Origin: an uncultured Clostridia bacterium
GTDB lineage: Bacteria; Bacillota; Clostridia; TANB77; CAG-508
Direction of reading: 5' to 3'
Assembly (NCBI GenBank): GCA_944392085.1
Contig: CALXVN010000003.1
Location: 1 to 37,727, forward strand
DNA length: 37,727 nt
The first letter of the stretch is position 1. Each line of letters opens with the position of its first letter. The notes under the pieces were generated by a model. That model had not been told where the DNA came from. It made no database searches and saw nothing but the letters and a program-made list of their open reading frames with translations. Both the position numbers and the translations under genes were made by a program. This document shows, one piece after another, positions 21,542 to 32,594 of the stretch.

Positions 21542-21658
21542 ACAAATGAAAAGTAGCATCTTGCGTTGTCAAATCTCATAAAAATTTTTTCGATGTACAA
21601 TAGTACTATCTCAAAAATTTTTATTCATTTTCCTAGCAATATACTACTTTTGATTTGC
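21542..21658. repeat. Structured intergenic element family A, copy 1
   Basis: Long interrupted hairpin with conserved motifs GCGTTGT, TCGATGTAC-loop-GTAC, CCTAGC. Confidence 0.75.
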
Positions 21659-21724
21659 TTTAATTAAATTCTAATATTATATAATTTGAGGGAAGGTTTC
21701 TCCCTACTTTGGACAAAAGTATAG

Positions 21725-21743
21725 AAAAAGGCCTGTCCCCAAT
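21725..21743. repeat. REP-like family B single arm upstream of the pheS RBS
   Basis: aaaaaggcctgtccccaat matches the arm at 34923-34941. Confidence 0.6.
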
Positions 21744-21760
21744 CTGACAAGGAGGAAATT

Positions 21761-22798
21761 ATGGAAGAGCAAATTAGCAAAATTAAAGAGGTAGCCGTTA
21801 TGGAAATAAACAAAGCTACTGATGCAAAAGAATTGGATGAAGCAAGAGTAAAGTATTTAGGTAAAAAGGGTGAGCTTACAGCTATTTTAAGAGGAATGGG
21901 AGCATTATCTCCAGAAGAAAGACCTATTATTGGAGGAAAAGTAAATATTGCAAGAGATGAGATTGAAAGCCTAATAAAAGAAAAAGAAGCAGAGTTTGCA
22001 AAGGCAGAACTTGAAAGAAAGTTAAAAGAGGAAACAATTGATATTACATTGCCATCTACTAAAGTTAAAAGAGGAAGTAAGCATCCATTAAATAGAATAA
22101 TTGAAGAGGTAGAAGATTTATTTGTTTCTATGGGATATGATGTTGTAACAGGTCCAGAACTTGAAACAGATGAATATTGTTTTGAAAGATTAAACTTACC
22201 AAAGGGACATCCAGCAAGAGATATGCAAGATAGTTTCTATATTACATCAGAGTATTTATTAAGAACTCAAACTTCTGCAGTTCAAGCAAGAACAATGATG
22301 GCAAATGAGGAAAAAGGTTCTATAAGGGTTATATGCCCAGGTAAAACATATAGAAGAGATGATGATGCAACACATTCTCATCAATTTAGTCAAGTTGAAG
22401 GTTTAGTTATAGATAAAAATATTTCTTTAGCTGATTTAAAAGGTACTTTAGAAGTATTTGTTAGAAAAATGCTTGGGGAAAATCTTGAGCTTCGTTTTAG
22501 ACCAAGTTACTTTCCATTTACAGAACCATCATATGAGGTTGATGTAAGTTGTTTTAAATGCGGAGGAAAAGGATGTAATTTATGTAAGCAAACTGGATGG
22601 ATAGAAGTTCTAGGTTCAGGTATGGTTCATCCAAATGTATTAAAAATGGGTGGGTATGACCCAGAAGTTTATAGTGGATTTGCATTTGGTACAGGACTAG
22701 ACAGATTAGCAATGTTTAAATATGGAATTACAGATATTAGATTATTGTATCAAAATGATGTGAGATTTTTAAATCAATTCGACAGATTAGACCGATAA
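21761..22798 (+). CDS. pheS: Phenylalanine--tRNA ligase alpha subunit
   Basis: [48 protein letters not shown]. Confidence 0.98.
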
Positions 22799-22978
22799 CT
22801 TATAATTTTTTAACTTTAATTTAACTAAAAATTAGAAGTTAAATTAAAAGATATATAGAAGAATAATAATTAGATTTAGTTAGATAAAAAATAAAAGTTA
22901 TTTATATAAGAAAATATGAGGAGTGTCCCTTTTGTCCAAGTTTTTGAACTGAAAGGAGTGTCCCTAAAGGAGGAAAAA

Positions 22979-31030: not shown

Positions 31031-31147
31031 TTAGAAGATAATTATTTTGGGCGTTGTTACACAAGTTTAAAATTTAATCGACGTACAAGGAGCACGCCTC
31101 ATAAATTTTAAACTTGTGTGCCTAGCCCAAAATCAATTCTTTTCTAA
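31031..31147. repeat. Structured intergenic element family A, copy 2
   Basis: GGGCGTTGT, a 19-bp stem, TCGACGTAC-aagga-GCACGCCTC, the complementary stem, GCCTAGCCC. Confidence 0.8.
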
Positions 31148-31151
31148 ATTT

Positions 31152-31200
31152 AAAATTAAAAAGAATTAAATTTTGCCTAGCAATACTAGTTTCTTTTTAA
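31152..31200. repeat. Internally deleted family A derivative
   Basis: aaaattaaaaa...taaattttgcctagcaata..gtttctttttaa matches both ends of copy 3. Confidence 0.6.
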
Positions 31201-31235
31201 TAGCTAAATTATAAATAAAATGAAAGGATACTAAA

Positions 31236-32471
31236 ATGGAAAGAAGAGTTGTTATTACAGGACTTGGAGCAATAACTCCAATAGGAAATAATGTAGAAGA
31301 ATTTTGGAAAGGAATAAAAGAAGGAAAATGTGGAATCGGTGAAATAACACATTTTGATACAACAAATTACAAAGTAAAATTAGCAGCAGAAGTAAAAGGA
31401 TATAATCCAGAAGAATATTTTGATAGAAGAAATGCAAAAAGATTAGATACATTTTCTCAATTTGCTATTATTGCTGCTAAAGAAGCTTGGAATGATAGTA
31501 AATTAGATAAAGAAAAAGAAGATATGGAAAGAGTAGGAGTAATTTTAGGTTCAGGAATAGGTGGATTAGAAACAATGGAGAAAGAAATGTCTAATCTTCA
31601 TGAAAAAGGACCAGATAGAGTTTCTCCAATGTTTATTCCTATGAATATTGCCAATATGGCTGCTGGAAATGTAGCAATAGAATTGGAGATTAAGGGAGAA
31701 TCTATAGCAATGGTTACAGCCTGTGCATCAGGAACTCATTGCATAGGAGAGAGCTTTAGAATGATAAAAAATGGATATCAAGATATAGTAATATCTGGTG
31801 GAACAGAAGCAACTATTACTCCAATTGGAATAGCAGGTTTTACAAACATAAAAGCACTTTCACAATCAAACGATAAAAACAGAGCAAGCATTCCATTTGA
31901 TAAAGAAAGAAGCGGATTTGTTATGGGAGAAGGTGCTGGAATAGTAATATTAGAGGAATTGGAGCATGCAAAGAAAAGAGGAGCAAAAATTTATGCAGAA
32001 GTAGTAGGCTATGGAGCTACATCAGATGCATATCATATAACTTCACCTGCGCCAGAAGGAGAAGGTGGAGCAAGAGCAATGAAGATTGCAATGCAAGAAG
32101 CAAATGCAAAACCAGAAGATATTACATACATTAATGCACATGGAACTTCAACACATTTAAATGATTCTTGCGAAACAATGGCTATAAAAACAGTTTTAGG
32201 AGAGGCTAGCAAGAACGTAATGGTAAGTTCAACAAAGGGGCATACAGGACATTTACTTGGTGCAGCAGGAGGAGTAGAAGCAGTTGTGTGTGCAAAAGCA
32301 GTAGAAGAAGGATTTGTTCCAGCTACAATAAATTATAAGGTACCAGATGAAGAATGTGATTTAGATATTGTACCAAATGAAGGAAGAAATGTGGATATAA
32401 AATATGCTATGTCAAATTCATTAGGATTTGGTGGACATAATGCAAGTATTTTGCTAAAAAAATATGAGTAA
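31236..32471 (+). CDS. fabF: Beta-ketoacyl-ACP synthase II
   Basis: RRVVITGLG, TACASG, GEGAG, YINAHGTST, KGHTGHLLGAAG, SNSLGFGGHN. Confidence 0.97.
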   Translation: MERRVVITGLGAITPIGNNVEEFWKGIKEGKCGIGEITHFDTTNYKVKLAAEVKGYNPEEYFDRRNAKRLDTFSQFAIIAAKEAWNDSKLDKEKEDMERVGVILGSGIGGLETMEKEMSNLHEKGPDRVSPMFIPMNIANMAAGNVAIELEIKGESIAMVTACASGTHCIGESFRMIKNGYQDIVISGGTEATITPIGIAGFTNIKALSQSNDKNRASIPFDKERSGFVMGEGAGIVILEELEHAKKRGAKIYAEVVGYGATSDAYHITSPAPEGEGGARAMKIAMQEANAKPEDITYINAHGTSTHLNDSCETMAIKTVLGEASKNVMVSSTKGHTGHLLGAAGGVEAVVCAKAVEEGFVPATINYKVPDEECDLDIVPNEGRNVDIKYAMSNSLGFGGHNASILLKKYE

Positions 32472-32594
32472 AAATTAAAAATAAACTTCATCTTGCGTTG
32501 TTAAAATTTAGATAAAAAATCCTCGATGTACAAAAAGTACACCTCCGGTTTTTTACTAAATTTTGCCTAGCAATATTCGTTTCTTTTTAATTTT
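32471..32594. repeat. Structured intergenic element family A, copy 3
   Basis: TTGCGTTGT, stem, TCGATGTAC-aaaaa-GTACACCTC, stem, GCCTAGCAA. Confidence 0.8.

Follow-up and report, generated by a model that had tools for sequence, protein, structure and literature searches.

The DNA analysed here, referred to as the window, is a 37,727-nt stretch (contig CALXVN010000003.1, forward strand) from the assembly GCA_944392085.1 of an uncultured Clostridia bacterium, and it contains three full copies and one remnant of a hairpin-forming repeat, which we designate Family A. Family A is an unusually widespread new variant of the fold-back class of bacterial MITEs (miniature transposable elements with inverted repeats), and we consider it likely to be a non-autonomous element moved in trans by a DDE transposase that duplicates a TA target. 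By its behaviour, Family A is mobile or rapidly turning-over DNA and not a required or discrete non-coding RNA (ncRNA) locus: copy numbers vary widely between sister species, and the same intergenic gap is empty in one genome and filled in another.

Copies, architecture and covariation of the hairpin

The copies of the window and of whole genomes were scored with R2, a cross-phylum covariance model of the element. Copy 1 (21538-21664, plus strand; 68.3 bits, E 6e-20) lies between the terminator region of a T-box leader and the start codon of pheS. Copy 2 (31027-31153, plus strand; 91.3 bits) is located in the gap between fabG and fabF, and copy 3 (32470-32597, plus strand; 87.6 bits) in the gap between fabF and accB, with the first base of each at the stop codon of the preceding gene. 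A remnant of a further copy, which belongs to another subfamily and retains only the 3' arm, is found at 31165-31199 on the plus strand (nhmmer, profile positions 84-118, E 0.006), and a similar remnant is present in the orthologous gap of a sister genome (L155). The first-pass annotation, made from the sequence of the window alone, had marked three full copies and one truncated copy at these places, and all four were recovered. The motif TCGAYGTAC-N3-7-GYAC occurs three times in the window, compared to 0.00 times in 100 shuffles.

The element is built in three layers, with terminal inverted repeats containing an A-run and a T-run on the outside, a covarying stem beneath them, and a conserved central module. 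The latter comprises a YGTTG 5' box, a stem, the core TCRAYGTACA-NNN-AGTACRCCTC, the return stem and a CCTNG 3' box. The loop sequence that the first-pass annotation gave as TCGAY is TCRAY across the family; in copy 1, the 3' part of the core is the variant GTACTATCTC. Each full window copy folds into one long hairpin, with z-scores of -7.0, -8.3 and -5.9 for copies 1 to 3, and none of 200 shuffles was equally stable.

Covariation was analyzed in 28 copies from the same genome and in a 51-sequence cross-phylum alignment (A4). The latter consists of the three window copies and 48 of the 64 non-redundant loci described below, a choice that favours clean hairpins because truncated, insertion-bearing or poorly folding loci were dropped (L029, L031, L033, L047, L052, L063, L068, L074, L077, L081, L086, L095, L097, L111, L140 and L141). 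Double changes were found at 22 of the 29 predicted pairs within the genome and at 25 of 29 RNAalifold pairs across phyla. In A4, 86.9% of cells are paired versus 58.1% after shuffling and 34-42% with slid partners, figures that are somewhat favourable to a structure derived from A4 itself. The covariation score was 0.674 versus 0.170 for shuffled alignments, and none of the 500 shuffles reached it. Compensatory change extends along the whole length of the stem, including the outermost helix (74.9% of cells paired, double changes at 9/9 pairs in A4). The conservation of the core in A4 follows by construction, since the loci were retrieved by an exact core, whereas the conservation of the YGTTG and CCTNG boxes, which the search pattern did not include, is 90% or more.

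According to these data, a hairpin with asymmetric loops of conserved sequence is under strong selection. They bear out the earlier observation that the loops are conserved and the stems differ between copies yet still pair, and in the larger alignment the covariation is well above that of shuffled controls. The first-pass annotation had attributed this pattern to selection on an RNA or single-stranded DNA structure. The selected hairpin stands; a discrete ncRNA locus does not, and its place is taken by a dispersed mobile repeat of patchy distribution. No Rfam 15 family corresponds to the element: at the gathering threshold only the T-box passes in the window, and at E≤10 the search gave only junk matches of miRNA and snoRNA type, the best on the element being a plant miRNA model (34 bits versus a threshold of 139.7).

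Copy number and turnover in related genomes

The window's own assembly (G000; 1.29 Mb in 91 contigs, 27% GC, 72.6% complete) contains 36 copies on both strands, including the three of the window (profile from five copies, E<1e-5). Thus, the window copies are present as described earlier but are not isolated. The G000 copies form subfamilies and are near-identical within each, outermost stem included. The stems of the three window copies appear nearly unrelated because these copies represent different subfamilies. At one locus (G000:C5:25704-26219, L008), four copies of two alternating subfamilies are arranged head to tail in a single intergenic gap, and further copy pairs are present on contigs C7, C45, C4, C14 and C20.

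Among 18 sister species, the number of copies detected with R2 ranged from 0 (two genomes, 94-95% complete) to 69. No copies were found with R2 in nine genomes from three other families of the order, and two of three genomes from a fourth family contain 3 and 11 copies. The fabG-fabF gap is empty (22-58 nt) in three relatives, holds a full copy (180-229 nt) in six (L153, L154, L155, L156, L157 and L158), these copies being of differing subfamilies, and in L162 (64 nt) retains only the 5' remnant of a copy. Likewise, some sister species have a filled fabF-accB gap and some an empty one, and L153, L162 and L157 have 5' remnants there. The element is dispensable, given that the same operons are found in sister species that have no copy or a single one.

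The most abundant subfamily in G000 (contigs C8, C13, C77, C14, C28, C20, C2, C12 and C48) has a conserved 3' extension with the sequence AGGAAAGGA, which resembles a ribosome-binding site and is located a few bases upstream of the next start codon. Its 5' flank often contains a GGAGG-like motif ahead of a TTG, from which, in a hand reading of the subfamily consensus, a frame of approximately 49 codons is open across the entire hairpin. Judging from these sequence features, this subfamily may supply or relay translation initiation to the downstream gene.

Distribution across phyla

The exact 23-nt core was searched for in one genome per species, and at least 123 loci were detected, of which 113 had full flanks free of N; 64 were left once near-duplicates had been removed. 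The titles of the core-bearing records include Rokubacteria/Methylomirabilota, Nitrospirae, several Deltaproteobacteria, Bdellovibrionota, Clostridia and Peptococcaceae, as well as Treponema vincentii, Planctomycetota, Verrucomicrobiia, Limnocylindria and Patescibacteria. The core together with its two flanking boxes and the hairpin layout was found in genomes labelled as at least eight phyla, with GC contents of 27-74%, and a few core loci, such as the one from Acidimicrobiaceae, look like chance matches. The GC content of the element tracks that of the host (0.24-0.74), and its length is mostly 121-128 bp across many lineages.

Bacterial MITEs are normally genus-level families defined by local insertion-sequence ends. 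Family A keeps an invariant centre and a fixed architecture from gut Clostridia of 27% GC to Rokubacteria of 70% GC, with every stem position recoded. It therefore represents a natural and very deep covariation data set, and points to a conserved interaction, whose partner would be a transposase, a host protein that binds nucleic acids, or an RNase. In intergenic scans, copies of this family inflate the number of 'structured RNA candidates'.

A blastn search with a copy of intermediate GC content gave no match in plasmids or E. coli genomes. In the literature, 10-mers of the core gave only chance primer matches, one of them to an unrelated cyanobacterial terminator template, and nothing pertinent was found on Correia-like or cross-phylum MITEs. 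The multicopy families reported in the Geobacter genome paper do not match Family A.

Signs of transposition and candidate mobilizing enzymes

Evidence for transposition comes from two draft metagenome-assembled genomes (MAGs). The Bdellovibrionota MAG G001 contains 71 exact cores and about 100 near-identical copies of 179 bp. Of 13 distinct G001 copies (from 15 rows examined, two of which repeat a locus), 11 have a TA at either end, in the context YTA-element-TAR. In the Rokubacteria MAG G033, at least 92 copies were detected with 150 of 849 candidates scored, and the true ends lie approximately 17 nt past the model on the 3' side. The nine G033 copies whose ends were read have perfect inverted-repeat ends flanked by cTA...TAg or TAc. 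In 8 of 20 G033 copies, the TAG stop codon of the upstream open reading frame (ORF) is formed by the flanking 5' TA and the first G of the element. A CTAG-type target thus accounts for elements located exactly at stop codons in a GC-rich genome.

At five G033 loci (L262, L264, L266, L268 and L276), the 3' terminal repeats are in tandem, the inner one imperfect and the outer one perfect, which explains the common size of about 146 bp. A second size class of about 188 nt was also observed among the G033 copies. An ORF of 393 codons at equal distance from three G033 copies proved to be a coincidence, as the loci end within these ORFs and different proteins are encoded.

G001 also contains an intact 855-bp insertion sequence (IS) of the IS5 family (G001:C19, L281 1472-2330), which is likewise flanked by cTA...TAg. 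Its transposase (249 aa) scores 256 bits with NF033580 (cutoff 110) and 91 bits with the Pfam family DDE_Tnp_1, and the terminal 21 nt of the insertion sequence are identical in 19 positions to the end of the 179-bp MITE. No IS with matching ends was found in the draft genomes of the window's own genus. End similarity was absent from the remaining DDE_Tnp_1 loci of G001 and G033. An isolated terminal repeat of G001 (L165), considered as a possible IS trace, adjoins a broken acetyltransferase-like ORF instead.

Family A thus has the hallmarks of a MITE: a length of about 125 bp and thus below 300 bp, no coding capacity, many dispersed copies, terminal inverted repeats (perfect in G001 and G033), TA target-site duplication in these two genomes, and presence/absence polymorphism at orthologous sites. 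In the mechanism that we propose, a TA-duplicating DDE transposase of IS5 type would mobilize the copies in trans, and the stop codons TAA and TAG would be frequent landing sites. The copies in G000 would then ride passively inside the pheST and fab transcripts.

Orientation, strand asymmetry and transcription

In G000, 29 of the 30 copies located between co-directional ORFs are in the sense orientation (approximately 22 of 23 distinct intergenic regions by hand count), in agreement with the single orientation inside operons noted earlier for the window. In 15 of 36 G000 copies, the end of the upstream ORF is no more than 4 nt away from the element as extracted, or overlaps it by up to 15 nt. 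Of 20 G033 copies, 10 are located between convergent genes, 7 are sense and 1 is antisense between co-directional genes, none is between divergent genes, and the context of 2 is unclear. Among eight G001 copies, one is sense, two or three are antisense, and the rest are between convergent or divergent genes, so that no sense bias is seen there. With regard to replication, the plus version is on the G-rich strand in 33 of 36 G000 copies. This bias is confounded with gene orientation, because 83% of long G000 ORFs are also on the G-rich strand. The copies on C38 and C13 accompany genes of the C-rich strand and are oriented with the gene rather than with the GC skew, and one G000 copy opposes both.

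The two strands of the element are not equivalent in folding. Folding is more stable on the complementary than on the transcribed strand in 62 of the 64 non-redundant loci (mean -71.3 versus -60.1 kcal/mol) and in 32 of 36 own copies. The difference persists in 55/64 loci with the core forced unpaired and in 58/64 with DNA parameters. On the complementary strand the helix is continuous, with the core closed by tandem G.A and G.U pairs, whereas the sense strand has U.C and A.C mismatches. Outside the core, G.U counts favour neither strand (173 versus 149), and in 12 of 51 sequences the sense strand has U.G at one of the stem pairs. Operons may tolerate only the orientation that places the weaker, mismatch-bearing hairpin in the mRNA, from which the sense bias would follow.

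These observations also bear on a different explanation, according to which the element is a host-selected cis-acting RNA (a processing site, stabilizer, attenuator or protein-binding site), its conserved loops are recognized by a conserved partner (an RNase or RNA-binding protein, for example), and its spread is secondary. Such a role would fit two loops kept in sequence while the stems covary across phyla, the strong sense bias in G000 (29/30) and the suggestive one in G033 (7 to 1), the location of copies directly behind stop codons, and the behaviour of the C38 and C13 copies. It would also be consistent with RNA-library contigs from two studies, which span the end of fabG, copy 2 and fabF with 0-1 differences. 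These contigs are a weak hint that copy 2 is co-transcribed with fabG and fabF; DNA carry-over is possible, they are uninformative on RNA ends, strand and level, and uncovered parts mean nothing. However, sister species with 0 or 1 copy keep the same operons, the same gap is empty or filled by differing subfamilies, and the better folding of the complementary strand argues against optimization of a sense RNA. Moreover, the G001 copies have no sense bias, and a TA/CTAG target is sufficient to explain the position at stop codons. We therefore regard a host-selected cis-acting RNA as rather unlikely. On the sequence data, an RNA-level role, for example in processing or stability, is conceivable; copies inside core operons (T-box-pheST, fab) could alter mRNA processing, and any effect on mRNA processing or stability would be a by-product of the insertion.

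Strength of the case for a mobilized MITE

Several results weigh against mobilization in trans by a TA-duplicating DDE transposase. Loops that are invariant in sequence across phyla, together with compensation over the full 55-60-bp stem, are more than end-binding by a transposase requires. The G001 insertion sequence shares only its termini with the MITE and has no counterpart of the central module, so that simple deletion of this IS does not account for the module. The IS5-type model NF033580 scored above cutoff in none of 31 relatives from the window's genus and order, and no homologue of the G001 transposase was found in G000, G002, G017, G033 or G034. Thus, an autonomous element with matching ends was seen in G001 and not in G000, 30 relatives, G033 or G034, all of these searches having been run on draft MAGs, which often lose IS copies. 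An IS630-type partner was rejected as well: the TA flanks typical of IS630/Tc1-mariner MITEs are present, but DDE_3 was detected in only one of ten element-bearing genomes, with no end similarity there. TA duplication is illegible in the AT-rich genus of G000. Finally, the 29:1 sense bias is not expected from a palindromic TA target and needs selection, and this bias does not extend to G001.

As a further possibility, the central module of about 75 nt may itself be the functional unit, in the form of a structured RNA or single-stranded DNA motif recognized by a sequence-specific partner that is conserved in eight or more phyla. Mobile elements whose ends are unrelated would then have captured it more than once. 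The termini in G001 are wholly unlike the A-run termini of the copies from Rokubacteria, Clostridia and Peptococcaceae. If this were true, the module would let its carrier elements live inside operons or be copied. We consider this possibility doubtful.

The HUH transposase question and a second repeat family

The strand asymmetry could also be explained if Family A were the single-stranded DNA substrate of an HUH/Y1 (RAYT-like) transposase, folding on one strand at replication in the manner of REPINs. An HUH-transposase substrate was among the suggestions of the first-pass annotation. This explanation would be in line with the continuous helix of the bottom strand, with the shared orientation of 33/36 copies relative to GC skew, and with the presence of Y1_Tnp genes in 8 of 10 element-bearing genomes tested. 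In G000, the sole Y1/RAYT-like gene (L254:285-1091) is located beside radA and encodes a protein of 268 aa, which is closest to the NCBIfam REP-associated tyrosine transposase (57 bits, below the cutoff of 80). However, the repeat on either side of this gene, present as inverted arms of 46 nt (G000:C76, L254 110-155 and 1083-1128), is a hairpin of another family, and R2 detected no Family A copy beside a Y1 gene in eight Y1 loci. RAYT and TIRYT genes have been described with their own flanking repeats (excerpts of PMC6006769 and PMC3733652). Furthermore, the presence of Y1 does not track copy number: G010 has no copies and two Y1 homologues, and a complete Treponema genome carries the element and lacks Y1_Tnp. 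The TA on both sides indicates a staggered double-strand cut rather than IS200-type insertion, and the skew bias is confounded with gene orientation. Based on the other repeat bounding the RAYT-like gene and the lack of Family A beside Y1 genes, Y1/RAYT was rejected as the partner, and an HUH substrate now appears very improbable.

The repeat that bounds the RAYT-like gene forms a second family in G000, with a short hairpin, a GGGACAGGCC loop and approximately 50 genome copies, often as inverted doublets about 75 bp apart. Its arms around the gene resemble a REPtron/TIRtron arrangement. Many copies are located directly 5' of ribosome-binding sites, and the window contains this repeat at 34852-34947 and at about 21715-21745.

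Genes surrounding the window copies

The T-box leader upstream of copy 1 (21260-21514, plus strand) matches Rfam RF00230 with 105.9 bits (gathering score 93), and pheS and pheT follow downstream (21761-25393, plus strand; TIGR00468 359.8 bits and TIGR00472 829.1 bits). Between the T-box leader and pheS (21260-21761) are located one copy of Family A and one of the second repeat, so that every read-through transcript has two additional hairpins in its 5' untranslated region. The genes separated by copies 2 and 3, fabG, fabF and accB, occupy 30260-33062 on the plus strand (TIGR01830 356, TIGR03150 643.9 and TIGR00531 147.9 bits). Upstream of the T-box, the region 18069-21020 encodes a Snf2-family helicase of 983 aa, whose likeness to pilus-regulating and anti-phage (ZorD/DrmD-like) helicases is seen below cutoffs only.

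Comparison with known repeat families

Family A shares several features with the REP/REPIN-RAYT/TIRYT systems, including dispersed palindromes often behind genes, compensatory evolution, strand-asymmetric folding and a RAYT-like gene in the genome. In these systems the repeats flank the RAYT gene and a GTAG/CGTC tag is located by a short hairpin. In contrast, the RAYT-like gene of G000 is bounded by the other repeat, and Family A is flanked by TA, ends in long inverted repeats, lacks the GTAG tag, and contains a CGTC-like 5' box in some copies only. Chunjie from Geobacter uraniireducens is also a hairpin MITE resident in operons, and Family A occurs at Geobacter MAG loci as well. By its description, Chunjie is set apart by its length of 178-235 bp, 21-bp inverted repeats and 9-bp direct repeats (excerpts of PMC3184786), whereas Family A is flanked by TA.

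The TA-ended hairpin MITEs of bacteria form a class that includes Correia/NEMIS, RUP and ERIC (excerpts of PMC2229807, PMC10969869 and PMC3184786). RUP from Streptococcus pneumoniae and ERIC/IRU from enterobacteria are hairpin MITEs of 107-127 bp with TA ends and with intergenic and operon sites, and RUP has been proposed to be mobile in trans via an IS with matching ends (both from excerpts of PMC2229807). The partner of RUP is of IS630 type, whereas the sole matching partner of Family A belongs to the IS5 family and DDE_3 is essentially absent. The comparison with RUP and ERIC was made by description, and blastn with Family A gave no match in E. coli genomes or plasmids.

Family A also resembles the Correia elements (CREE/NEMIS) of Neisseria, whose properties are described in PMC2649163 and PMC2229807. 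Both are non-coding MITEs of about 105-155 bp with TA at both ends and inverted repeats containing an A-run; both form a hairpin over their whole length with a directional conserved core and are often co-transcribed; and for neither is the cognate transposase known. Correia elements have been reported from Neisseria only, whereas Family A is present in many phyla. Correia copies retrieved with the pattern printed in PMC2649163 have the same order of landmarks: TA end, A-run inverted repeat, GGCGTTG, a CGTAC-N5-GTAC hairpin, CGCCTTG, T-run and TA end.

This order raises the possibility that Family A is a diverged Correia member and that both belong to one ancient superfamily. In keeping with such kinship, R2 aligned globally to 30 Correia loci with a preference for one orientation (13-24 bits versus 6-13 in the other). 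However, these scores are at the level of generic hairpins, because the unrelated palindromic doublet at 34852-34947 of the window obtains 21 bits on both strands. A profile built from A4 by sequence alone gave matches of just 14 nt and 2 bits in 72 of 80 Correia loci, and reversed controls reached 2.3 bits. By these comparisons, the 26-bp repeat ends and the conserved CREE core that define Correia elements were not recognized in Family A. Common descent is thus improbable in our estimation; in its appearance and apparent mode of action Family A resembles a Correia element, and membership is not shown by sequence, the matches being not significant. Family A provides a lead on the possible movement of Correia-type elements, whose mobilizing enzyme is still sought.

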